Shown in pieces: positions 6,793 through 63,243 of a DNA stretch of 64,000 bases. Location: contig JAAILG010000040.1 of the NCBI GenBank assembly GCA_012026655.1, positions 1 through 64,000 of the forward strand, given 5' to 3'. The notes under the pieces were generated by a model. That model searched no databases. It saw nothing but the letters and a program-made list of their open reading frames with translations, and was not told the DNA's origin. The translations under genes were made by a program, and so were the position numbers. Within the stretch, counting starts at the first letter, position 1; each line of letters begins with the position of its first letter. This stretch comes from Hydrolagus affinis. Lineage: Eukaryota.

Positions 6793-7140
6793 AAGCTCCT
6801 GTAGCTCAGTGGTTAGAGCACTCGCCTTACAAGCATGAGACCTGTGTTCGAATCCAAGCAGGTCAAAGCGAAACCGTGGGCAAGTTTCCTTACTCCACAC
6901 ACATGCCTAATAATAATCCGTCCAAAAAAAAACAATAATAAAATTGGCCATTTCAATCCATGACTGTTTGTGTGACACTACTGTGCGCAATTGGCTGCCG
7001 CGTTTTGCCCTCAAATAGACAGTCAATTCACATTACAGTATGCTCTGTGAAGCGCTTTGAGACGTTAAGATGTGATAAGATATGAAAAGATAAGATGTGA
7101 AATGCGCTATATCAAAATGTAAGGTTTATTTATTATATTA
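6793..7140 (+). mobile_element. Full-length tRNA-derived SINE, preceded by a minus-strand L2 tail (~6736-6790)
   Basis: cctgtagctcagtggttagagcactcgccttacaagc...gttcgaatcc; body and tail as in other copies, with slippage repeats in the tail. Confidence 0.9.
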
Positions 7141-21512: not shown

Positions 21513-21814
21513 GGTGTCCTGTAGCTCAGTGGTTAGAGCACTCACCTTGCAAGCGAGAGACCCGGGTTTGATTCCTGGCAGGGCGAAACCTTGTGTAAAT
21601 TTTGTTACTCCACATACCTGATAATAATCCCTCAAAAAATATTATTTAAAAACTGATCATTTCAATCCACGACTATTTGTGGAACACTGCTGTGCACAGT
21701 TGGCTGCCATGTTTTGCCTACATATATCACTTTACAGTATATTCTATGAAGCGCTATGAGATTTCTAGAAGACGTGAAAAGCACTACATCAAATGCAAGG
21801 ATTATTATTATTAT
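21513..21814 (+). mobile_element. Full-length tRNA-derived SINE
   Basis: gtcctgtagctcagtggttagagcactcaccttgcaagcgagagacccgggtttgattcc head with TGC at the anticodon-equivalent position; standard body and tail. Confidence 0.9.
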
Positions 21815-24239: not shown

Positions 24240-27201
24240 TTGTTAGTATTCTAGATTTAATAAGACAAGCATAACAGATAGTTCCATGTTCTGAAGATTA
24301 ACAAGGTCATCTATACAACAAGTATTAATAACTGAAACATTCCGTGATGAGTTTATATCATATAAGAGTGGCACAAGTACAGAAAACATGAGTTTGTAAA
24401 TTTCACATGTCTTCATTGAGTGATAACATACCACGGTATCACTGACAAGGGCACCTCTGAATTTTTAATGCTGATACACTATAAAGTTCACTAACAAAGG
24501 GTAGTACTTAAACCATTTAAGACTAATACAATACTATATATATTCACACAGCGGTGAGATGACATCACGCCACTACAAAGTTAAATAAGTTACCGTCTAT
24601 TTGTAGGGTACTTTACAACATCCTTGTAAGCATACAAATTAAGAAAATTATTCTGTTAAACTTGATACAAGTTTTCACATTTTCTTTTAAGGAGACATAA
24701 AAGCAATAATTTGACAAATACTGGCTGCAGTTCTCTGTGGTAGGGAAAGGTTGACCTGAAAGTTGCTGAAGATTGGTGTTACAATGGTCAAAGGCTGAGG
24801 GAATCATGCATATTGAAGGCTTACTTCTGTGCTTTACAGTATAGGCTGAAAACTGCGGTCAATATTTGCTTTGCTATTCCCCTGGGCTTACACTTATTTC
24901 AAAAGCAAGAAACCTCTGCACCTGTCCTGTGCCAGCCACACTTTGAGCTTCAGGAAGCCAGAAGGCAACACTTATTGTTCCACTGCTCCTAAGGCTATTT
25001 GATGATCTGTCACAACGTCAATTAGCAGGCAACACTGAAGAATATTTCCGCAAGTGTAACAGTTCCTGGGGTGGAACGTGATCACCCATTTCAAGCCCAA
25101 GGTATAATAAAATGAAACGGACATAAGGCTACACATCAGAAATTATACTTTGGTTCGTCAACATTTCCACAAAAGAATTGCAGGCAAAACTAAAAATAAG
25201 CTGCTCCCTTACGACAGAAAATGCAGGAACCGTACAGAAATGGCTTTGCGTCTGGGAGCGGTTTATTAAATCGGATCATCGTTAAAATGCCGGTACCTAT
25301 AAATCTTGGCATGGTTAGGAACTGGCATTTACAAATACTACATGGTTCATTTTGCCGTAAAATACAGTAGTCACACAAATGACGGAACAGTTTAATAACA
25401 CAATTCATCCGGATAAAAAGAAATTAGAGTCAATGACACACACCTAGGTAGGAAACGGAAACTTAAAAGATCAGCATACATATCTTTAAAATCTGTAAAT
25501 GAATCTCTGGATGCCATGCATATTCTGATAAGGCTAATGAAAATATACAATTTATTTAAACCCTTTCCCCCCACCCCCACCCAAAGAATCTTAATTGCAA
25601 AAGGTTTGCCCTACAAATACAAACCACTACACAGCATGAATTGAAAACCTTTTGTTTGCATCGTGAACAATGGTTTGATTTTCGCCATTGCAAATATCTT
25701 AGTCTCAACAAGAGTCATAAAGGATGTATGTGAGTGCTTCGCAGCTAGTTAATAGAAACATCATTTGTGCCTTGTAGAAAAAAAATCCTCTAGATCTTAG
25801 ATCAATTTTTTTTTAAAAGCCAGTGATTCTAAGCAGAAGTAATTCAGTCTTATAGAAACTGATATAATAAAAAGTTTTATGCGTGTACAATAACTTCACA
25901 ATCGTTCACTAATTTAAAATTTAAGTAAAAATTTGCCGCTCTGTATTCTGTGACCATTTTTCTTGGTGGAAATACTTCACTGACTCAATAGGGCATTGCT
26001 GCATTTTGCGTATCGACATTGCCGACATTTACAGAGGTCACAGTGTGAACTTTGACTTCCTGCTTCAAATTCTTATTATGCACGTCAATAAAAATCAAAA
26101 AGCAGCAAAGTTGCACATCCAGAACTTGCACCAGTATTATTGTTTTTCAAAAAAGAAATGCTGAATCGACATCCCTATGCTCCCTCCCCAAACATTAACA
26201 CTTTATTCCTAATTACAAAATGTACACGCCATTGTCCTACGTCTGAATCTTCTGACCGAATGTAATCACAAGATGCAGAACTTTGGGTATAGAGCACATT
26301 TGAAGAAAAATAAGACACAAGGTTTGGAGCAGCCATATTGCATACCTATGAGGCACGGTTTGCACGAGGATGATTTGTGTGTGTTTTTTTGACAACTCAA
26401 TGGTGCCATAGCTGCCATTTGAACTAGTGCCTTCTACCTATCAATCACTTTCTAAGACATTCGTTAACAAGGAGACTCTCCAAAATCAGATTCCGTAGTC
26501 CACATTGTTATTTAAAACTGAAGTGACTATTTCTTTTAGACTTGTGCCATTTCTCAGTTACGCACATTAATGTTATTGTTTCATTCCTTTCCTCTGCTTT
26601 TTGAATGTGGCCACAGTATGCAATTTGTAAAACACTGCTCTTCTGTAAAGCTGTACTAGCTGGTGTTCTATCGGGGAAAGGGGAGCTGTTTGGTCCCTTA
26701 AACTGACAGCCATTGCAATGTTATGGAGTCAGCGTGAAAAAATACTTAGCTAGGATCCCATCCCGTTGTATTCTCATATTCAAGATCTGCGGATCTACAG
26801 TTCAGAAGTGGGTTGGTTATGAGTCATTGAAATCAACTAATGGGGCTCAAAGTTGCTTACACCACTAATGTTTCAGTGGTCACTGGTTGCCACTAAGCCA
26901 GCACCTGGAAACCACTTCTGAACTGTGGACATCTACAATACAAATTGACATTCATACCACAACACGTTTTATTACTTGTACAATATGTCCTTGAGAAAGA
27001 AAGGCAGACTACAGCAAAGGGTCCCATGCATCTTATTCTCCAACAAATATTGTACTTCTGGCAAGCGTTCTTCATGGCCCATCACCATTTTCTTTACTTT
27101 ATTTGAAGCCTGTTGGTAATACGAACTAAATGGAAATTGAACAAAATGCAGTCACATCCCCAAACTTGCTACAGAGTGAAGGATGTTTGTGCAGACTTCG
27201 C
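24240..27201 (-). other. chl1: Putative long 3' UTR of the chl1-like gene
   Basis: About 3 kb with no recognisable repeats directly after the stop. Minus-strand AATAAA at 27098-27103, 26968-26973, ~26202, ~25551 and ~25262; ATTAAA at 24256-24261 followed by a U-rich tract. The end point is inferred. Confidence 0.5.
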
Positions 27202-27421
27202 TCATGCGTTAGCGGGAGACGTAGCTGTGGAGCTTTCATTTCCATCCACTGCGCCATTTTCTTTGTTTCCACTGTACTGTCCAATGAATGAACCGTCTTC
27301 ATTAAACTGTCCCTCCGATCCACCTTCTCCATACTTTGCCAGGCTGTCATCACTGCCTGTTGGCTTCACATCCTCAGTGAGAGACTGCTGGCTTCCTTTC
27401 AGGGGCCTGTCTTCATTGTCA
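27202..27421 (-). CDS. chl1: CHL1-like neural cell adhesion molecule, terminal coding exon (cytoplasmic tail)
   Basis: Acceptor ttttctttccag|T. Reads (S)[72 protein letters not shown] (220 nt). L1-family ankyrin-binding FIGQY at 27274-27288. Confidence 0.96.
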
Positions 27422-29256
27422 CTGGAAAGAAAATCATCCTCTCTCAGAATGTGGTGAAGACAGTTCAGGAAAATTCCAATAATTCCTTTGATTTCTTTTT
27501 TCTCTGCTATTGGGAATTACAGTGTAGAAATAGTTCCATGCTATTAGCCTGCACTTTGCGTCAATTTATATGAATTATCTGATTTACTGCTGATTTCCTT
27601 CCATCCAGGAATCGATTACTGTGATGTACTCAGAAATCTTAATTTCTTCCTATTGAAGGCTAATTTTATTAATTGAGTAGAAACACTTAAAACAAAGAAC
27701 ACCGTTGTAACAGTCAGGCTTTGGTTACAATAAATTAACATGGTCTGGTTTCAGCCTCTGTGCAAGATTTGGTTCATAACTTGATACCACTTTCATTTAA
27801 TAGCCAAAAGCACTTCTACAAGAGAAGGAGAGTTAGCGTCCAGTGTTTCCTCTGGGAGGTGGAGATGGGGATGGTGGGATTCCCAGCTTCAGGGAGTTCC
27901 AGTCTATCTTGGGAAGTACTGAATCTGGCTAATTTCCTGAGCCAATTCTGGAGGTTGGATTATCTATTTGTATTCATAACTGCTTCCGGTAGTTTGAACA
28001 CATTGAAATACTTCAATGTAGCCTCAACAACAGGTTTCAACAATTCGATTCAAAGTTACAGGTAACTGTTATTCTATTAGGTTTTTGGGAATAGCTGTAC
28101 ATTGACGGAAATGAACAATTAATGTCAATAATAATCCAAATTCATCTTTCCTCTTTCAAAATCTGTTTCTTGTTCACAGATTGTGCTGTTTTCATTTCTC
28201 ATTCTGGAGTCACGTTTTCCTACACTTTTCTACATTAAAATCAATTTGCAATTCATTGAATAAGTTGTCCTTTTAATAGAGTCAGATCATGTTGAATGCT
28301 GTTTATCTATCTGATTCTATTTGGGTAACATTTTTCCAAGTTATACCAAGGGTTCATATTTCATTCTTTGGCATGTTTGATCAGAAGAGGGGCAAAATGA
28401 GTGGTCGATAATGTTTTCATGGAATAGTGATTTCTCGGTCAAGCAGTATAATTAGTTAATTATTCAGAAATACTATTAAACCAAAAACAAAATACAATCA
28501 TATTTACCAGCTAAATAGATCATCCATAATTTAACTATACAGTATTCTAATCTGAAATAATTTTTTATATGAATATAAGTCTTGCTGCAAAAAGCAGCTA
28601 TGAGTTACTTTTGAAATATCCAGAGACCAATTTACCTTCCACTGACCCGACCAAATTGCCGGCAATAACTGTATGCAATGCGAAACGCAATATTCAGATA
28701 ATACTTTTTTTTGAATCATTGCATGCAACATGCTTATCACAAGAAGCAAAACACAAACTGCACAAATCGCACTCCGCTCGTACAGAAATAATCTAGGAGC
28801 TTGAATATTGGCTGAATTCACAATATTGACTCCACATCAATTGTTCTAGCGAAAACTTTCATTGAGCTGTTATGATTGATAATGCTTTTGGGCTTTCCTT
28901 GGCCAGAGAATGAAACCAAATCAAAGGTAAAAACGTAGCCTTTTCATTATTTAACATTTACGCGTTCGAGAAACACAGAACGTATTTTGAAATGCAAATT
29001 ACATTGGGGGATGAAAATATGTTGTTTCCTGTTTCAAATTATGCTCCACATAATGAGTCAAATTTAAGCCCCTGATTCATTGTAAGTGTAGATTTTATGC
29101 AAAAATAAATGTGGAAATGCTTCAAAGATTAAGTTGCAGCTTAAGAATGTGACAGATGGAAGAAGCTAAAATTAAGAAGACAGCTGGCAGAAGAATCCAT
29201 TATCTACGTAAAAAAAAAACTGGACAAAAACCAACTGGACACAATTACCATCTTAC

Positions 29257-29268
29257 CTTTCCAGTGAC
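29257..29268 (-). CDS. chl1: 12-nt RSLE microexon
   Basis: gggaacag|GTCACTGGAAAG|gtaaga, phase 2-2. Joining gives TAC AG|G TCA CTG GAA AG|T GAC = YRSLESD, at the position of L1CAM exon 27. Confidence 0.9.
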
Positions 29269-30124
29269 CTGTTCCCATTGAAGTTAGCAATAAGAAAGAA
29301 GAGCATAAAAACATATTAAAGAGCAAAATCCTCTGCTGTGCATGTAAAGGGAAATGGTTCGGTGATTTTAAATTATTGCAGCGAGTGAATAAACTGAGGT
29401 TGAAAAAATATTATAATTTGTTCATTTATCTCTGTATAATTATTTCATCTTGGATTCATGGTAAAGAAATGCATTTCCCCGCTATTTGCTGTGCTCTTAT
29501 GGATTATATTGGCTTTGACTAGAGTTCATTGTTGCTAAACATATTTGTCTTCTAAATACACTGCGAGCGCAATGTGAATTTCAATAAGGAGGGGAAGGAA
29601 ACAGTGTGTCGGTTTCTTGGATTACAATGTTGGGCAAAATGATTTGGTTTCCACCTTCAATGTACTGTATTACCTTCGTCTCACTGATGTAAAACAACCT
29701 AAATTGCTGTCCCTTTACAATCTATCACCTATTAATTTGAAAATGAATGTCTACATTTGGGGTAAATGTATCCATATAAAATGGATACCAGCTCATTCTT
29801 CAAGAATATAATGAATCCCACAATAAAAACTTTGTGTGATTTATTGATTCCTCCACCCCCACCACCAAGTTTCCACTTGTACGCACACACATGTCACTCA
29901 CAAGGTCATAAGAATGTTTTGGATGAATGAAGAATGCCCATCAGCCCATTTGATCCTAACCTTCCATAATACCCACCCGTCAGTCTTCCCAACACAGCAT
30001 GAGCTGACTCCCCCCTCTTTTTTACAGAAGGTCAGGACTTCAACTGTGGCTTCAATATTGCACTAAATAAGTGCAATTTCTCTGTTTTGGAGGCTATATA
30101 TTCACCTGCTCTCTGGCCAACGTA

Positions 30125-30185
30125 ATACAATACAAAATGACACTTGTGTTAGCGCCTTTCACGTCGGCAGGACGTCCCAAGGTGC
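30125..30185 (-). mobile_element. L2 3'-tail fragment
   Basis: caaaatgacacttgtgttagcgcctttcacgtcggcaggacgtcccaaggtgc. Confidence 0.72.
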
Positions 30186-30257
30186 TGTGTGCATTTTATT
30201 GCAAACTGCTAACCCGTAATTCAGACTGGGAGAATGCAGCAACATTGTTGGAATTTG

Positions 30258-30442
30258 AAACAAAAACAGAAGTTGCTGGGGAAACTCAGCAGGTCAGGCA
30301 GCATCCATGGAGAAAGGAAAAGAAGTCAAAGTTTCGGGTCTACGACCCTTTGTCAGAACTTGGAGTGCTGCCTGGCCTGCTGAGTTTCCCCAGCAACTTC
30401 TGTTTTTGTTTCAGATTCCCAGCATCTGTAGTACTTTGTGTT
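30258..30442. mobile_element. Palindromic Penelope-derived non-autonomous element with vestigial hammerhead ribozyme and 13-bp TSD
   Basis: Inverted arms 30257-30303 / 30366-30412. Minus-strand core CTGACAA-AGGGTC-GTA-GACCC-GAAAC at 30324-30360. Direct repeat ttgttggaatttg at 30245-30257 and 30443-30455. Confidence 0.75.
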
Positions 30443-31879
30443 TTGTTGGAATTTGGTTTTGCAGGAATTCAATATAACGCATTGAGAGAAATATGGAACA
30501 CTGCTCCAAGTCTGAAATCACAGCCATCTCCAGCCAGTCCTGTAACATTTTATATCTGGCATTGGGTGAACAAAAATCTGCTATCTAACTGGATCACTGA
30601 GATTCAAATATCTTACTTAAAATTGTACGTAATACAAATCCCGGCATCAGATTGATATCTTAAATCCAGCCTGCTGAGTTAATATACTGCAGGGTTCATC
30701 TGATTAAACTGCAACTCAGACTTGGGGGAGGATGGAGGTTAGATTTAAACCCTTTACGAACCGTAAGATCTGGGATCAGTTCCAAATGAGTGTCTTTGCC
30801 TGTTGCTAAAAATAATAAGCATCGGTTGATGCAATTTCCCTAGTCATTTCTAGTCGCCGTTGCTTTGCTTTGTCAGAGACCATTTACATTCTCCATAAAG
30901 CACCTTATAGTGTGTGTGTCTGTGAGCCAGTTAGCAAAACGGTTCTAATCTTTACTCGGATGAATCAAGTCACAATTATGAAAAGAGTTCAATTCTTCAA
31001 ACGGAGAATGCTGGGTGTTTTGAATTGATTTTCCCCGTGTGTTTTTTTTGTTGTTGCTGTAACTGAGATGCCCTCATGAAGATCACATCAATTACAGGAG
31101 ATATACACGTTAAAGAAGTGACACGTTATTAGTTCCATCATTCATTGCTGATGTCCTAGGTCAGGAAGTGAAACGAAAAGGGTGAATCATCAATACACGA
31201 GAAAGATGATTACATTTTAATTGATCAGCCATGAATTAATTATTGGCTTTGATTGATTAGAAACACTGCAGTCAGTGAACCGGCACCAAAGAGCACGGGG
31301 CAAATGAAGTGCGCAAAGAAATTGACATCTAAGTCTCATTAGGCTAACTGGCAAAACAGGCAGTATCTGTTAACAGTACAGTGCATCAATCTGCAGGAAG
31401 GACAAAGACAAAATCTACTCCTGACTCAGGAGAATATAAAAATTCCACGCGAAGGATGACATTACATCTCTGCAGGGGTTCTGGTAATTGAAGTACAACA
31501 TGAAAATCAAAGCAGATAGTGTGTCTGCTCCACTGGAGAGTAGGTTTGGCAAGTCAGTCATTCAATACACCACCGTACAGCTTAGCTCAGAATGATGATG
31601 AAAATGAGAGCAGTAGCAAAACAACCCATTCACCTCCTGCCTGAGAACCTCGCTGTACTGATTGAACAACAATCTCAAGTATTCCCTCTTTTTTTTAATC
31701 AGTTTTAAATAAATCACTAAAACATTGATCAACGTAAACGCTCGTTTCTTGCCTCCCCCTCAGACCCTGCTGTGCGCAGAATAAAAATGAGATAAAAATA
31801 TGAGCGAATGCAAACGCAACAAACTGCAGACACTGCTGCATAATGAAGGGGCATCCGTCAGCAGAGATGGAGAAGGAAA

Positions 31880-32110
31880 AAGGATTTCAGTGAGTATTGA
31901 TCATTCATTGAAGGTTTACAGACATGGTGAAGCTGCTGTGGACAAAGCTAATCAAATGCTAGATTGCATCTCGAAGGTATTTGACTACAAATCGAAAGAC
32001 GTTATCCCAACATTGTATCAATCACTGGTGAGACAACATTTGGAATGTTACCTGTGGTTTGGGCAGCCCTAACATTCTGAAGGGCAATGAAATGTTCACG
32101 GAAGGACAGA
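31880..32110 (+). mobile_element. CR1 LINE ORF2 C-terminal fragment
   Basis: IDHSLKVYRHGEAAVDKANQMLDCISKVFDYKSKDVIPTLYQSLVRQHLE resembles CR1 KANRMLGCI....YKS.EV...LY.ALVRPHLEY. Confidence 0.85.
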
Positions 32111-32309
32111 GAAGAGGAAAATTTAGTGGAGTGGGTGGGGGGCGGGGGGTACCATCCGGTCTTTGGAAACATCTATGACTTATGTAAGGAGGCGATTTAT
32201 TCATTTGAGAACACGGCAAGCAAAGATATGTGGAAACAAAAGGTTACATAATCATGTAGGACAGGAAAATGAGAAGATATTTTATTCCCATCTGGAGGAT
32301 AAGGCGTCA

Positions 32310-32730
32310 GTCAGCCTGGCTCAGTTGGTAGAACTCTTGCTTCTCAGTCAGAAGGTCATGGGTTCAAGCACCAGGTCAGGCTTTTCAACCAACTGTCTAG
32401 GCTGACACTTCGAGGGGAGTGCTGCATTGTGAGAGGACATTGAAACTGATGTGCTGTCTGCCTGTTCTGGTGGCTGTTGAAGATCCTATGGCAGTATTCG
32501 AAGAGTAAAAGGGATTTATCCCAGCCAATAACCTCCCCCCCCCACCCACCCCCCCAGATAAAATTGATCGTTCACTTCGTTTATGGGCAATTGTTGTCCA
32601 CAAATTGACTACCACCGTTCACCTACAAAATAGAGTAATTACTCTCTTGCAGTAAACGCTGTGAAATGCTTTGAGGGACACTATACCCATGAAATGCACT
32701 ATAATTCAAATGCAAAGATTATTATTATTT
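32310..32730 (+). mobile_element. Older DeuSINE (SacSINE1-like), near full length
   Basis: gtcagcctggctcagttggtag..cttgcttctcagtcagaaggtcatgggttcaag head, tctaggctgacact, gagtgctgcattgt, gatcctatggcagtattcgaag, tail. Confidence 0.78.
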
Positions 32731-34137
32731 TACATAAACTGCCAAAGAAAAATACTTGATGTTCAGTCAGATGGAAAATTATCTGCTTGAGAACATTATT
32801 AGAAGTTACAGGGAAATCAACAAATTCTCCAAAGGTAAAAGCTGTGAATTGAAGGTGGGAGAAAGAGAGGGGATGTTTCTGTGTAAAGAGATGTGGGGAG
32901 GGATACATTCTCTTCATTGTGTATTTTAGTATTTTCGAGATCCAGGCAGCGTCAAAGCAATATCTTTTTCTAGGATATGTAGATTTAATCAATGACCTAA
33001 TGGGATTTGCTTAGACTGTGCAGAGTGAGAGTGATGGGCTAAAGTGGCATTTTCTCATTCTATGCTTTCCTCTGCATTTAAGTTCATGTCAAAAAGCTTA
33101 CATAAACATCCAGATCATTCAGTTCAAAGTAAATTGTCAAGAAAAATATCTTGATTTACCCATCCACTAAACCTACTCAGATTAACACAATGTAATGGTA
33201 GAATAGCAAACCAATACCATTTAACTAAATGAAATGTACAGTCAATTCTGTGAAGCGCTTTGAGACATCTCAAAGACGTGATCAGCGCTATATCAAATGC
33301 AAGTGTATTATTATTATTAGCTAAGAGAGTTAAAATAGTGATCTTAGGGAATCAAAAGAAAATACACAGTGCATAACAGGCTATTCAGTTCATTTTGTCT
33401 GTGCTGGTGCTTGCTGTCTCACTACTGCTATCTGATCTAAACCAATTCTCCTACTCTTTCACTGTGCCCTTCAATATTTCTCTTCCATACATTATGCTCT
33501 TTGAAAGAATATGTTTGAGATCACATTTTGCTTTTAGTTCAATTCTCCTGCCCTGAATCTACCTTTTGTGGCTACTTTGCAAAAAGAAATATCGTTACAT
33601 GTTGATTTATCATTGATTGGTGCGAAAAGCAATGAGATAGCAATGAGATGAGTGTTTAATGGAGGTGAACAATTCAATAATTACTTAAATAGGTAAATGG
33701 GATCAAAGGTATCAATTCCATCAAAATATTCTCCTACAGTTACATTTATTTCAATAGGTAAAGAAAATTCAGAGAAAATGTACCCTGTACAAGATACATA
33801 GTCAAATAATGAACTACTGTTACGATGATGTTGAATGTAGTCGCAAGTGTTTAAAATGAATTGTTAAAATATCTGCTGCTTAGAAAACTCAAGGTTATTC
33901 ACGCCCAGAGATCTGTGAATTGAAATGTATCTGAACTTCAGCTTTAGTGAGGTAATACTGCCTTCACACATCCTAATTAACCATAATTTGCTTTAAAGTC
34001 AAAAGCAAAACCGAACAATGAAATCCTAATAACTGTAATATGAATTTAACAGGACTGAAAAGCACGGGAGGAGATAATCCCACTACAGAAGTGACAAAAA
34101 TCTCAACACAAAATAAAAATGCAAAACAAAAATAAAA

Positions 34138-34435
34138 TAATAATAATCCTTGAATTTGATATAGAGCTTTTCACGTCTTCTAGACGTCTCAAAGCGCTTC
34201 ACAGAATGTACCGTAAAGTGAATTGACTGTATATTTGTGGGCGAAATGCGGCAGCCAATTGCGCACAGCAGTGTCCCATAAACAGTCATGGATTGAATTG
34301 ACCAATTTTATTCTTGTGTTTCTTGGTGGGAGGGATTATTATTAGGCGTGTGGAGTAAGGAAAGTTGCCCAAGTTTTCATCCTGACCTGCCTGGATTCGA
34401 ACATAAGTCTCACGCTTGTACTGAGCTACAGGACT
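34138..34435 (-). mobile_element. Near full-length tRNA-derived SINE
   Basis: Reverse complement of tail, body, B box (ggattcgaac) and head (ctgagctacaggact). Confidence 0.9.
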
Positions 34436-34581
34436 GCACAAATAAAAATAGTCCTTGCATTTGATAAGTCAGGAGAACGTCTCAAAGTGCTTGAAATTAT
34501 TTAGTGAAGTGCAGTGACTGTGCGTTTTGTAGTTGATTGTGGTTGCGTGGATTTGCGAGCTGCCTTGGAAAAGAGCTTTAC

Positions 34582-34654
34582 CTGTACTCTCCAAATGTTT
34601 CCTCTTTCATTGGCTGTGCTTCAGGATCAGCACGGGCGTCTTCTTTATCTTTAA
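34582..34654 (-). CDS. chl1: CHL1-like cytoplasmic exon (73 nt)
   Basis: ctcctacag|TTAAAGAT...GAGTACAG|gtaaag; reads (V)KDKEDARADPEAQPMKEETFGEY(R/S). Not in the ORF track. Confidence 0.95.
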
Positions 34655-39158: not shown

Positions 39159-39290
39159 CAGAATATTTTCCTCCTTTGTTTCTCTTTATGAAGCAGGCAA
39201 TTAGCAGAATGAGGGTAAGCAGAGCAATGGCACACATTAAGCCAATAAACCATCCTTGCGTAGATATTCCTCCATGAATTCCAGCATATG
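39159..39290 (-). CDS. chl1: CHL1-like transmembrane exon (132 nt)
   Basis: cctacaacag|CATATGCT...TATTCTG|gtaagt; reads (A)[43 protein letters not shown], closest to CHL1 [26 protein letters not shown]...GGKYS. Confidence 0.96.
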
Positions 39291-40552: not shown

Positions 40553-40714
40553 CTTTTACCCTTGTTTCTATAACATCTTCAAAAATGCTAGTGTTATCAA
40601 ACCAGTTCTTAGTCATAAGACGGATTGAATATTCACTTCCAGGTTCTAGCCCCTCTAAGATGTGGAATTTGTTTGAAACATTTACTGCTTCTGAAATCTT
40701 CCATTTACCTTTAC
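40553..40714 (-). CDS. chl1: CHL1-like fifth FN3 domain, second half (162 nt)
   Basis: ttccatag|GTAAAG...GTAAAAG|gtgagg; reads KGKWKISEAVNVSNKFHILEGLEPGSEYSIRLMTKNWFDNTSIFEDVIETRVK. The RLMTKNW.DN.SIF.DVIETR motif is characteristic of CHL1. Confidence 0.95.
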
Positions 40715-41086: not shown

Positions 41087-41200
41087 GGTTATTCATGTAT
41101 GCAACATAAAATTCAGAAGCTGCATGTCCCATTCCTGGAATCCAGCTGATGTTTGCATATGTTGCACTTACAGAAGAACTGATGTTCAGCAAGACTGGAA
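41087..41200 (-). CDS. chl1: CHL1-like fifth FN3 domain, first half (114 nt)
   Basis: ttcaatag|TTCCAGTC...AATAACC|gtaagc; reads (V)PVLLNISSSVSATYANISWIPGMGHAASEFYVAYMNN(R), with FN3 B-strand W and C-strand Y; phase 1-1. Confidence 0.9.
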
Positions 41201-42939: not shown

Positions 42940-43011
42940 CTATGGAAGACAGAGAATCATTGGCAACTGGGGAAAGGGAAGTAGTTGGAAAAGAGAAAGT
43001 AGTGGAGAAAC
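42940..43011 (-). CDS. chl1: Candidate cassette exon encoding a Ser/Thr/Pro-rich linker (72 nt)
   Basis: tttctgtgctttatttttcag|GTTTCTCC...TCCATAG|gtattt; phase 1-1, open: (G)FSTTFSFPTTSLSPVANDSLSSI. Confidence 0.6.
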   Translation of the reverse strand, partial: VSPLLSLFQLLPFPQLPMILCLP

Positions 43012-44747: not shown

Positions 44748-44777
44748 CTGTCTTCCTTGTGGGCAGTAGAAAATTAT
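44748..44777 (-). CDS. Weak candidate 30-nt cassette exon
   Basis: ttttgttttgcttcttccttaaag|ATAATTTTCTACTGCCCACAAGGAAGACAG|gtgatg; phase 1-1, open: (D)NFLLPTRKT. No homology support. Confidence 0.25.
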
Positions 44778-49084: not shown

Positions 49085-49403
49085 CCCTGCTGTAGCTCAG
49101 TGGTTAGAGCACTCGCCTTACAAGTGTGAGACCTGAGTTCGAATCCAGGCAGGTCAGGGCGAAGCCTGGGGCAAGTTTCCTTACTCCACAAACACACACC
49201 TAATAGTAATCCCTCCAAAAAAAACACAATAATAAGATTGGTCATTTCAATCCACGACTGTTTGTGGGACACTGCTGTGCGCAATTGGCTGCCGTGTTTC
49301 GCCCGCAAATACACAGTCATTTCACTTTATAGTATATTCTGTGAAGCGCTTTGAAATGTCTAGAAGACGTGAAAAGCATTCAAGAATTATTATTATCATT
49401 ATT
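49085..49403 (+). mobile_element. Full-length tRNA-derived SINE
   Basis: Intact A box tagctcagtgg and B box gttcgaatcc, standard body and tail. Confidence 0.9.
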
Positions 49404-51830: not shown

Positions 51831-52010
51831 CTCCTTCCATCACAGTTATCCCTTCCTCCGTGATAAGTTTCCCAGGTCCTGCCTTGGTGCAAGCTCTCAG
51901 ATAGAACTTGTATTTGCTGCTGGTGTCCAGATCTGACACTGTCAGTTTTGTTATAGTAGAGTTTGTAATATTTATTGCTTTCAGAGGCCCAATTTCATCT
52001 GTGTCATTAA
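51831..52010 (-). CDS. chl1: CHL1-like fourth FN3 domain, second half (180 nt)
   Basis: tttgttttacag|TTAATGAC...GAAGGAG|gtaagg; reads NDTDEIGPLKAINITNSTITKLTVSDLDTSSKYKFYLRACTKAGPGKLITEEGITVMEG, comparable to CHL1 NDTYEIGELNDINIT...KYKFYLRACT..G.GKPITEE. Confidence 0.95.
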
Positions 52011-53519: not shown

Positions 53520-53695
53520 CTGGTATTTTTTGAGGGATCATTATTAGGCATGTGGAGGAACTTGCCCAAGGTTTTGCCCTGCCTGGAGTTGAACCCAGGT
53601 CCCTCGCTTGTAAAGTGAGTGCTCTAACCACTGAGCACGTCCTCCTGACGTGAAAGGCGCCATACAAGTGTAATTTTGTTATTGTTGAGCTACAG
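53520..53695 (-). mobile_element. SINE 5' half interrupted in its A box by a 49-nt plus-strand L2 tail
   Basis: ...gctctaaccac[tgagc]acgtcctcctgacgtgaaaggcgc...ttgttattgt[tgagc]tacag; 5-bp duplication at 53632-53636 and 53686-53690. Confidence 0.8.
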
Positions 53696-56330: not shown

Positions 56331-56645
56331 AGTCCTGTAGCTCAGTGGTTAGAGCACTCGCCTTACAAACGTGAGACCTGTGTTTGGAATCCAGGCAGGT
56401 CAGGTCGAAACCTTGGGCAAGGTTCCTTACTCCACACGCCTAACAATAATCTCTCAAAAAAAAACAGTAATAAAATTGGTCATGTCAATCCACGACTATT
56501 TGTGGGACACTGCTGTGCGCAATCTTCTGCCGCATTTCGCCCACAAATATACAGTCAATTCACTTTACAGTATATTCTGTGAAGCGTTTTGAGGTATCTA
56601 GAAGACGTGAAAAGCAATATATTAAATGCAAGAATAATTATTATT
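56331..56645 (+). mobile_element. Full-length tRNA-derived SINE
   Basis: agtcctgtagctcagtggttagagcactcgccttacaa head, standard body and tail. Confidence 0.9.
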
Positions 56646-57600: not shown

Positions 57601-60600
57601 TCAACGTGGAGGAACATAGTGCGCTGCCAATGTTTTCTAGAGGGAAAACCAACGAGCAGTATTTCTACACAGATTTTGCCCTTTATTTTTCCACACAATA
57701 TCACTGGCTTCCTTACAAAAGCAGATTCACAAGTTTTGTGGAACTAGGCCTTCTTTTAGCAACATTCATGAAATTCGCTGTCACTCCCATCCGATCTTCT
57801 CACCCTGGATTTAGAGCTTTTGCTTTATGTTTACAGATTTTCTAACTTAATTCTTTCCCTAGATCTGTCACTAAATCTTTGTACATGAAACTAATTCTTC
57901 TTTTGTATCCTTTCGAAGCTCGAAGTTTAAAAGAGGTGACTGACCTAAACGCAGTGGTCAGTGCTATGATTCAATGCTTCATAGTATTCGATTCTAAAGG
58001 GTAGAGACTGTAGCTATAATAATAAAAATAATAATAAACCTTTGATTTTATATAATGCAGTTCACATCAGGAATTTCCATTCAGCCAAACGTCTCTATTT
58101 GTAGATGATGCCATCTTCTCTCATCCCAGCTCCTTGCTCTCCCCCCATGCTTTTCCAGTACCTTTATTTGTCATTATTGTCCGATTCCCTTATCAAATAA
58201 CGCAGCTGAATTCAACATCAGCAGCCACTTTCATCATATATATAATCCCAATAAGCTGTGGCGGACAACAAATTCTTCCGACCTCCCCCTCTATGCTTCC
58301 TGAATAAGCTTGGGTCTCAAGCCCCTTATTGTTGAGCAATAGGAGCAAATCTCATCTTGACAAAATAAATCTGTACTTGATGTTGAAGTCAATTTCAATA
58401 TTTCTGCTACTTTCTCAGCTGAGATCAACAAACTCAGCACAGGTCAGGATGTAAATCTGCAGCCTTGTGGCTTAGTGCTCCACTAGCTGTGTTTTTAGCC
58501 ACTTGGCTATCGAGGGAGCTCATCAGAAATAAACACCCTTTATATAAGCATTTTGTTTGGTACAAATGTCAGCAATGCTTTAAGGTTCATGTGCTTGGGA
58601 ACCAACCACCATGAAGCCAGCGCTGGAACGATTGCTATCAACAGCAAAGCAACTTGCCTGTGTCCTAATCTGGAGCTGGGCTTGAATAATGCACCAGTCA
58701 CATACACACAGAGTCAAAAGAAATAATTAATGTCGAAGAGGTGTTTGCTACAACATATTTTCTGTTCTAAACATTTGCAATTAATCCAGCTGGTCTGTAG
58801 GCAAATCAGGTTGCAGTGGTGAATGATTACGTAGACAGGGTTACCCATGCACACAGCTTAAGGTTACAGTGGACTTGTGAGCTCGGTAATGAATTATTCG
58901 AGTTCTTCTCCTCGAAATTCACCGGCTTGATAGAAAGCAACAAAGTCTTTGCAATCTTGCACATGCATGAACAAAGGGTAATTGGGCAGACGTGCACAAT
59001 AATTTGAGGCAAGAGTTCTGAGGGAGGACTCCACCCAAAATGTTAACCTCTCTGTGTCACGGAGTCGCTCATTTGGTTTATTTCTCATTGGGACTGAACG
59101 CCATGAGGTGATCAATCAGGAAAGACTTTATGTCTTTACTTTATGTATTCGGCGTGTAACATTGTTTTGGATTTCAGGCGATCAGAATTAGCATTTTCTT
59201 TCTTTCCCCCACCACCCCCCCAATAAAACAAAGTAGGTGCCTTTCACGGGGTTAAATCTCTCAGCGATGTGGAGCACTAAAGCAGGCACTGATGTGGCAA
59301 AAACATTGATATATGCACAGCCATGAGTCCCTTACTCCTGTCATCTTTTTAATATTTTAATACAGGCAAGAAGGCAACACAAATAGACCTCCCAAAGCAG
59401 CGATCCGACAGAGCCTGCCAAGGATTTTACAAATGCTGCACCATTCAATTTACATTATCGGTCACATTCGGCACAGAGTTTAGCCACACAATTCGAATAA
59501 AGATGAACTCCCAATTGAAATCATAAATGAATGGCTTCATATTCATTCCGTTGCAGCTTCAACATGATTTAACACTGCAGTGCCCACTAGGATTAAGGCA
59601 ACAAAAGCACCTTTACATGCCGCATTAACCCTCTGAGCGCCACGGCCCACGGGTCCACAATACCACCTGCTTTTAACCTGAAAACTATTGCCTTAGAATG
59701 TATGATTGTGGCAAGTTTTAGATATTCTTAAAGCTCAGTCTCAATTTGGAAGCCAGTTTGATGCAGTTCGTGAGACAAATCCCCTCCAAGGCCCATTAAA
59801 GCCTAAACATATGCGTTTGGTTTGCAGTTTTAAATTTTCCTGTAATTAAACTGCTCGACATTGTCAAGGCATTATTATTCAAATATTTGTTTTATTTATT
59901 TCAGCAGCGCTGCAGAAAAATTGCAAAATCATCCAGCCTAGAGAGGCAGATATTTCCTCCCATGCTCTGGAAGGAATCAGGGGCAATGATAGATACTGTT
60001 GTCACTCACAGCACCGAGTTTACCTCTCTACTCTCTGTAATCTAATTAGATAATTGGCTACCTTGAAAACACAAAAGCCTTTTAGTACCTGACTGATCAT
60101 CTCATAACATTCAATCCCACGACAAATAAGACTGTCAATTTAACCCAATTATTACAATACATCATTGGGTAAAATTGAATGTTCACTTCAAATTTGGATA
60201 AGGAAAATAGATAGTTCATACACCATGGGAATATATTAACCTCTGCGCCAGGCTGGTGGGTTTGCCTGAAGCACTAAAAGTACATTGAGTGATTCATTGG
60301 GATTTCAGTATTTTCAAAGTGCATCACCTCTCACAAAAATTCGCTCTTAAATGAGCTGACATTTAATTCGCTGCTCTCCCATACTAATTAGTTATCTTAA
60401 AGGCAGAATTGCCATTAACTCAATATTGTTTAGTTACTGCAGAAATTAACCTTTATACTGCTACGGTTTTAGTTTCTACTTATATATTCTAACCTGCGTA
60501 CTCTAATTTCTTTTTAGTGTTGACAGGTAAATGGCACCTTGTCTCAACGTGGATTATGTACTTTATCACAATCAATAATTAGAAATCCTTTCAGCAATGA

Positions 60601-62877: not shown

Positions 62878-63243
62878 ACTAATAATAACAATCCTTGCAT
62901 TTGATACTACACCTCATCACATCTTCGAGATGTCTCAAAATGCTTCACAGAATATACTGTAAAGTGAACTGATTATATTTTGTGGGCGAAACACAGCAGC
63001 CGATTGTGCGCAGCAGTGACCCACAAACAGTGGTGGATTAGAAAAACTCATTTTTATTTTAAGTAATTATTACTCCCGTTAAAGCGATCCGTCAATCGAC
63101 TAACAACCGGGTTTGTATTTACTGCCAGGTAAACAGAGGCGTGTGGAGTAAGGAAACTTCCCCCAACACTTCGCTCTGCTGGGTATCGAACCCAGGTCTC
63201 TCGCTTATGAGGCGAGTGCTGTAACCACTGAGCTACAAGACTA
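62878..63243 (-). mobile_element. Full-length long-subfamily tRNA-derived SINE
   Basis: Minus strand: cttgtagctcagtggttacagcactcgcc..gggttcgatacc..ccacacgcctctgtttacctggcagtaaatac..gtcgattgacggatcgc..tail. Confidence 0.87.

Follow-up and report, generated by a model that had tools for sequence, protein, structure and literature searches.

The four L1-family genes of vertebrates, L1CAM, CHL1, NRCAM and NFASC, have been described as a whole-genome-duplication quartet (PMC8851675). In the cytoplasmic tail of L1, inclusion of an RSLE exon (exon 27) marks the neuronal form, and YRSL, which has a role for ezrin too, binds AP-2 mu2 until Src phosphorylation of the tyrosine switches binding off (PMC2173551, PMC4810158); 14-3-3 binding requires RSLESD, a CK2 site (PMC2956685). 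Mammalian CHL1 has ezrin and spectrin links (PMC4754453) and is described as carrying FIGAY (PMC12681835), and uptake of mouse CHL1 is described as depending on lipid rafts (Tian 2012, as cited in PMC4754453). Here we analyze the 3' end of a CHL1 gene from the chimaera Hydrolagus affinis, which occupies the minus strand of a 64,000-nt stretch of contig JAAILG010000040.1 (hereafter the window), and whose tail departs from the mammalian description in having both FIGQY and an RSLE exon. To our knowledge, mammalian CHL1 lacks RSLE, in agreement with its absence from all 12 monotreme and bat CHL1 models with a readable junction. We conclude, with a probability of roughly 0.8, that the window CHL1 retains the RSLE micro-exon and FIGQY, likely from the vertebrate L1-family ancestor, and that L1-style clathrin endocytosis is the predicted outcome when the micro-exon is included.

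Six-frame searches and splice-site reading yielded seven exons with AG/GT ends that join into a single 296-codon frame with a lone stop at its terminus (Table 1); the final four of them make up the tail. All the tail motifs reported by an earlier reading of the sequence, the first-pass annotation, RSLE and FIGQY included, are present in these minus-strand exons in one frame; the transmembrane exon lies outside the interval that this annotation had given. Pfam PF13882, which covers the ankyrin-binding FIG-x-Y region of L1-family tails, is recognised in the last exon (E 1.7e-16; 61.5 bits, cut-off 23.8). From the ectodomain the window covers half of fibronectin-III repeat 4 (FN4), FN5 and the transmembrane (TM) exon, the Ig/FN3 Pfam set being found in the Callorhinchus milii orthologue. 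In the contigs of sequencing runs X1 and X2, which are RNA by guess and come from a relative with ∼7% differing letters, the last exon and 3' untranslated region (UTR) reach a depth of 150 to 430, compared with 1 to 22 in repeat-free intron bins, and coverage halts at the acceptor.

Identity to C. milii CHL1 is 99% in the last exon and 93 to 98% in the other scored exons, and we therefore regard the window gene as holocephalan CHL1. In a maximum-likelihood tree of the FN4-FN5-TM region (43 rows, 190 columns, LG+G4), it falls within the CHL1 clade of 20 rows (100/99), as sister of C. milii CHL1 (100/93) and outside the L1CAM and NRCAM clades. For the N-terminal ectodomain, a quick tree in which C. 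milii stands in for the window gene (31 rows, with 12 fragments or near-duplicates dropped) gave support of 100 for CHL1, 99 for L1CAM, 98 for CHL1 plus L1CAM and 99 for NRCAM plus NFASC. Ectodomain identity is 59 to 72% to 11 of the 13 bony CHL1 rows and 44 to 50% to the two remaining, gappy rows, against 27 to 41% to L1CAM and NRCAM. These trees uphold the assignment of the gene to CHL1 in the first-pass annotation.

We attach next to no weight to the idea of an L1CAM or NRCAM gene that resembles CHL1 through convergence or mislabelling. The tail of the window gene is closer to NRCAM (73%) and amphibian L1CAM (67 to 70%) than to bony CHL1 (48 to 67%), and three chondrichthyan isoforms have been auto-named "neuronal cell adhesion molecule"; this idea is nevertheless refuted by the FN4-FN5-TM tree, with which the N-terminal ectodomain tree agrees, and by the existence in C. 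milii of its own L1CAM (P0228, V9K9R6) and NRCAM proteins apart from CHL1. Judged from its sequence, the window gene is an ordinary holocephalan CHL1. The L1CAM-bearing paralogous region has been reported missing from the skate and elephant shark assemblies (PMC8851675); despite this, the chimaera L1CAM P0228 (V9K9R6) is present in UniRef.

The RSLE of the window gene is encoded by a genuine 12-nt exon, located 5313 nt past the preceding exon and 1835 nt ahead of the last, in a host intron of 7160 nt. This intron contains 23 AG-12nt-GT candidates, a single one of which encodes RSLES, and among 2000 dinucleotide shuffles of the intron RSLES never appeared (0/2000), while RxLES did so five times. 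The exon has a GTAAGA donor, TGC at -21, -37 and -57, and no rival AG for 62 nt upstream. Its length of 12 nt, its donor and its TGC motifs are sequence features of neural micro-exons regulated by SRRM3/4, which have been characterized as very short and in-frame, with a strong 5' site and UGC near the 3' site (bioRxiv 10.1101/2024.09.17.613571). The same micro-exon is spliced into 3 of 11 C. milii CHL1 models, including RefSeq X1. Three other AG-12-GT candidates resembling SLE were ruled out by translation, and four further RSLE strings found in the six frames are chance occurrences without splice context. The last-exon contigs of runs X1 and X2 end at 27424 in one and 27423 in the other; for run X2, such a pair would be compatible with an additional path upstream whose end resembles that of the micro-exon, an indirect point that we do not count as evidence.

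We compared 102 chondrichthyan CHL1 models (21 species: C. milii and 20 sharks and rays) and 296 bony-vertebrate models. FIGQY is present in all 95 chondrichthyan models with a readable motif, FIGEY in all 122 ray-finned and lungfish models and FIGAY in all 155 tetrapod models, 19 of the 296 bony models having no readable motif. The insert was found in 24 of the 97 chondrichthyan models with a readable junction (8 of 21 species) and reads RSLE in C. milii and GSLE in seven shark or ray species, one of them represented by a truncated skate model. SLE is invariant in all 24, which span chimaeras, sharks and rays. By comparison, the 287 readable bony-vertebrate junctions contain one x-L-E insert, YRYLE in a model of the flatback turtle, Natator depressus (P0559, CAM5154005.1). 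Among X1 or sole models, 7 of 17 chondrichthyan species have the insert versus 0 of 32 bony species (Fisher p 2e-4), in a set that was hand-picked, consists of species that are not independent and does not include the turtle model.

An RSLE-type insert and FIGQY thus appear to be general in cartilaginous-fish CHL1, and both are already contained in RefSeq and UniRef models. The trait is not special to this gene or genome. The first-pass annotation had allowed that its claim would lose its novelty if both motifs were general in non-mammalian CHL1; they are so in cartilaginous fishes, though not in bony fish, amphibians or reptiles. Its literal YRSLE was seen in holocephalans only, the junction being YGSLE in sharks and rays. 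The closest relative, C. milii CHL1 (XP_042195494.1 X1, XP_042195495.1 X2; UniRef A0A4W3IWW4), has a tail 98% identical to that of the window gene, with the same micro-exon and FIGQY, and is close to but not identical with it in sequence. Shark and ray CHL1 likewise combines FIGQY, a full FN5 and an optional 12-nt exon, and its tail is 82 to 87% identical (five species aligned). NrCAM, neurofascin and the lamprey L1-family genes also have an RSLE-type insert and FIGQY, but they form separate clades and bear C-terminal extensions that are absent in the window CHL1. Lamprey proteins read YRTLE or YRSLG, plus FIGQY; amphioxus has FIGQY without SLE.

The tail had been described in the first-pass annotation as L1CAM-like, a description that our comparisons do not sustain. 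Over 110 residues its identity is 73% with C. milii NRCAM and likewise with P0381, an L1-family protein of lamprey, the highest values outside chondrichthyan CHL1, and 62% with C. milii L1CAM, 62 to 67% with amniote CHL1 and 50 to 55% with ray-finned CHL1. Twenty-three tail residues are shared with L1CAM and not with most bony CHL1; since NRCAM, NFASC or cyclostomes have 20 of these as well, and only three are confined to L1CAM, the tail is not specifically L1CAM-like. Two further residues link the tail to bony CHL1 alone. Some of the residue labels of the annotation were likewise misplaced: PLKGS, assigned to CHL1, is also found in NrCAM, an SSTAT-like stretch occurs in hagfish, and VKDKEDA, assigned to L1, occurs in lamprey. 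The tail ends at the stop position of amniote CHL1; L1CAM, NRCAM and NFASC run on beyond this point in a C-terminal extension that it does not have.

In a tree of the tail from which the micro-exon and Q/E/A columns had been removed (104 columns), the L1CAM tails are united in a clade (100/98) that takes in the chimaera L1CAM and leaves out the window gene. The branch of the chondrichthyan CHL1 tails is short and arises from an open fork; the stem of the bony CHL1 tails is longer (0.069 for the former versus 0.19 for the latter). In approximately unbiased (AU) tests, grouping of the tail with C. milii L1CAM alone was rejected (p-AU 0.0006), as was grouping with NRCAM (p-AU 0.027). Both proteins had been considered as orthologues of the window gene and were discarded, the gene lying outside their clades in the ectodomain and tail trees. 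A chimeric origin, in which a CHL1 ectodomain acquired an L1CAM tail by gene conversion or exon shuffling, could account for the 23 matching residues, and the AU test allows the chondrichthyan CHL1 tails to group with those of L1CAM as a whole (p-AU 0.41). We nevertheless consider it very improbable, given the wide occurrence of 20 of those residues, the position of the window gene outside the L1CAM clade and the short CHL1-type C-terminus that it has kept. A recent event of this kind is largely refuted: the sequences reject a tail swap from chimaera L1CAM, and an early swap, conceivable with 104 columns, would not be needed to explain the tail. On these comparisons the tail is an ancestral L1-family one rather than one specific to L1CAM.

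Several observations weigh against retention of an ancestral tail followed by change in bony vertebrates. The turtle model carries its YRYLE at the micro-exon junction, if in only 1 of 20 turtle models. The insert is not seen in 13 of the 21 chondrichthyan species either, and RSLE appears in just 7 of 58 NRCAM models. The CHL1 sample is without coelacanth, bichir, human and mouse; a search seeded with lungfish CHL1 yielded mainly birds and neither of the first two. The R-to-G change in the elasmobranch insert (YGSLE) suggests relaxed constraint. The AU tests fail to place the tail, all CHL1 together (p 0.50) being accepted along with the grouping with all L1CAM. Finally, no exon-exon joints were listed when runs X1 to X4 were mapped to the window, repeats swamping the mapping; high-copy repeats lie at ∼30.1-30.5, 33.0-33.3 and 34.1-35.2 kb.

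The first of these observations bears on the timing of loss. The same ancestral tail may have been in place while the micro-exon, rather than disappearing once in the bony-vertebrate stem, survived, degenerating, into amniotes, underwent several losses or silencings and now escapes most annotations. The turtle insert, four residues long and exactly at the junction, may be a surviving micro-exon, and because models so often omit an existing exon, as the NRCAM and chondrichthyan counts illustrate, little can be concluded about loss from protein models that do not show it. Nevertheless, the insert is confined to a single bony model and is missing from every bony X1 or sole model, and the turtle sequence, known from a protein model alone, is possibly homology-forced or a read-through, comparable to an unrelated four-residue insert at the junction in a teleost-type model (P0233). 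We regard this late-loss history as a serious, if unlikely, competitor. The first-pass annotation took RSLE and FIGQY for ancestral features that persist in this gene and were altered afterwards in bony vertebrates, a view that agrees with the trees and the model distribution; its placing of the losses within bony vertebrates fits the near absence of the insert there, while the turtle YRYLE makes the date of the micro-exon loss uncertain. In the zebrafish neural-exon tables (PMC12626424 supplements), an 18-nt chl1b exon is the only one given for CHL1, but 12-nt exons of nrcam and l1cam are missing too.

It could also be argued that in cartilaginous fishes the micro-exon is a decaying relic, seldom included and without a role in endocytosis. 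The exon is skipped in most models, and in the YGSLE of sharks and rays the arginine that belongs to the 14-3-3 motif of L1 is gone. This sits poorly, however, with an SLE that is unchanged in 24 of 24 insert-bearing models, with intact splice signals and upstream TGC motifs, and with a YGSL that still conforms to Y-x-x-hydrophobic; we find such decay improbable.

We thus favor retention of an ancestral tail. CHL1 and L1CAM would be sister paralogues from the vertebrate genome duplications, and the CHL1 tail would have changed little in cartilaginous fishes, sharks and rays showing no more than an R-to-G replacement where the exons join. In the bony-vertebrate line, Q would have changed to E and, in tetrapods, E to A, together with loss of the first half of FN5, and the micro-exon would have been lost or silenced in most bony-vertebrate lineages. 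FIGAY and the lack of RSLE are tetrapod or bony-vertebrate states and not traits of the whole CHL1 orthologue group.

Neuronal L1CAM provides the model for what the tail may do (PMC2173551, PMC2956685). It has the same 12-nt exon position and FIGQY, and the window encodes YRSLESD, identical to that of L1; on the other hand, L1CAM is a separate paralogue with an ectodomain only 27 to 36% identical and a longer C-terminus, and is present separately in chimaeras. Since YRSLESD is identical and the splice features are of the micro-exon type, we infer neural inclusion and clathrin-mediated recycling. The micro-exon is likely included in neurons through SRRM3/4-type regulation; inclusion would create YRSL, which in L1 serves AP-2 mu2 and ezrin, and RSLESD, in L1 the CK2 site for 14-3-3, and skipping would leave YSD and a surface form with a longer life. 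FIGQY would tether CHL1 to ankyrin and spectrin until its tyrosine is phosphorylated. We hold the AP-2 step itself, uptake driven by YRSL, to be somewhat more probable than its failure, by analogy with L1. In sharks and rays, G would keep the Y-x-x-L pattern and remove the arginine of the 14-3-3 motif.

The functional stake of FIGQY is probably small. Isothermal titration calorimetry gave high-affinity binding of ankyrin-G for each of the four L1 proteins, CHL1 with its FIGAY included (PMC9396398), and because mammalian CHL1 still binds ankyrin through FIG-x-Y, the change from Q to A was not a loss of function. FIGQY, whose loss the first-pass annotation had placed in bony vertebrates, did not go in one step but from Q to E to A. 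The raft-dependent uptake of mouse CHL1 is consistent with a switch of route once the signal had been lost, without demonstrating it. A bolder scenario would have the micro-exon neurally spliced in all cartilaginous fishes and surviving in some amniotes (turtle YRYLE), AP-2-dependent uptake being shed late and repeatedly, so that the series YRSL, YGSL, YRYL and none, with FIGQY, FIGEY and FIGAY, records a switch from clathrin to raft; we rate it as doubtful, slightly more so than late loss alone.

Table 1. Features of the CHL1 gene in the window, in order of transcription
Feature	Position	Strand	Basis
FN4 (fibronectin-III repeat 4), second-half exon	51831..52010	-	tblastn 93% vs C. milii CHL1; AG/GT ends
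Small alternative Thr/Pro-rich exon between FN4 and FN5	44748..44777 (3' end uncertain)	-	81% over 16 aa vs C. milii X1, E 0.03; acceptor and first GT
72-nt alternative Ser/Thr-rich exon between FN4 and FN5	42940..43011	-	100% over 23 aa vs C. milii X1; AG/GT ends
FN5, first-half exon	41087..41200	-	97% vs C. milii
FN5, second-half exon	40553..40714	-	94% vs C. milii
Transmembrane exon, ends KRNKGGKYS (juxtamembrane KGGKY motif)	39159..39290	-	98% vs C. milii; splice ends
First wholly cytoplasmic exon, VKDKED...FGEY, final residue the sorting-signal tyrosine	34582..34654	-	Motif and splice reading
12-nt micro-exon, RSLE; completes YRSL (Y-x-x-hydrophobic signal)	29257..29268	-	AG acceptor, GTAAG donor
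Last coding exon: PLKGS, GSDDSLA, FIGQY, SSTAT, stop; ankyrin-binding region	27202..27421	-	PF13882; 99% vs C. milii CHL1
3' UTR, continues past 25500	25500..27201	-	Contig coverage of runs X1 and X2

The ectodomain exons of the window gene tell a similar story. Models that include the first FN5 exon number 48 of 102 in chondrichthyans, 7 of 20 in sturgeon and paddlefish, 19 of 31 in holosteans, 5 of 10 in lungfish and 0 of 115 in tetrapods, which suggests that the half-FN5 of mammalian CHL1 dates to the tetrapod stem; retention of this exon appears to parallel that of the tail motifs. Sturgeon and bowfin CHL1 share the two small alternative exons, rich in Thr, Ser and Pro, that lie between FN4 and FN5, the 72-nt exon being 79% identical to that of sturgeon and 71% to that of bowfin. 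The position of the two exons recalls that of the PAT region in neurofascin.

Other variation was seen at the junction in bony CHL1. Six of ten lungfish (Protopterus; P0135, P0542-P0548) models have a 25-residue insert there that is unrelated to SLE. In nine models (P0523, P0535, P0563, P0568, P0571, P0612, P0614, P0620 and P0676), alternative C-termini without the ankyrin motif begin soon after the junction tyrosine; a His-rich type is common to gar and bowfin, and another type to turtle and alligator.

Elsewhere in the window, including the downstream 27 kb, a tblastn search with 150 representatives revealed no clear Ig/FN3 or contactin genes other than CHL1. A weak match on the plus strand at 58499-58675 (E 0.001, 35%) to an invertebrate L1-like protein is probably due to chance. 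The sole Rfam matches, six tRNA-like ones at 6798-6862, 21515-21586, 49086-49154, 53583-53636, 56331-56403 and 63171-63242, are likely heads of SINE repeats.

Our literature search, outside which most subscription journals lay, found no account of RSLE or FIGQY in fish CHL1 or of their stepwise history. The 2013 phylogeny of the L1 family by Mualla, Nagaraj and Hortsch may cover part of that history. The ancestral state is in any case predictable, because both motifs are found in each of L1CAM, NRCAM and NFASC, and L1CAM is the sister of CHL1. What the present data appear to add is a dated stepwise series: Q, E and A in the ankyrin motif; RSLE, GSLE and none at the junction, with a possible hold-out in turtle. 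With an ancestral state that can be deduced, sequences already in RefSeq and ankyrin binding kept in mammalian CHL1, this amounts to a modest evolutionary footnote. Within these bounds, the unusual tail of CHL1 would not have been inherited from the genome duplication but would be a bony-vertebrate and tetrapod derivation reached in steps; the series may serve as a dated example of how a single paralogue lost a micro-exon and as a natural allelic series for the roles of the RSLE micro-exon and of the fourth FIG-x-Y residue.

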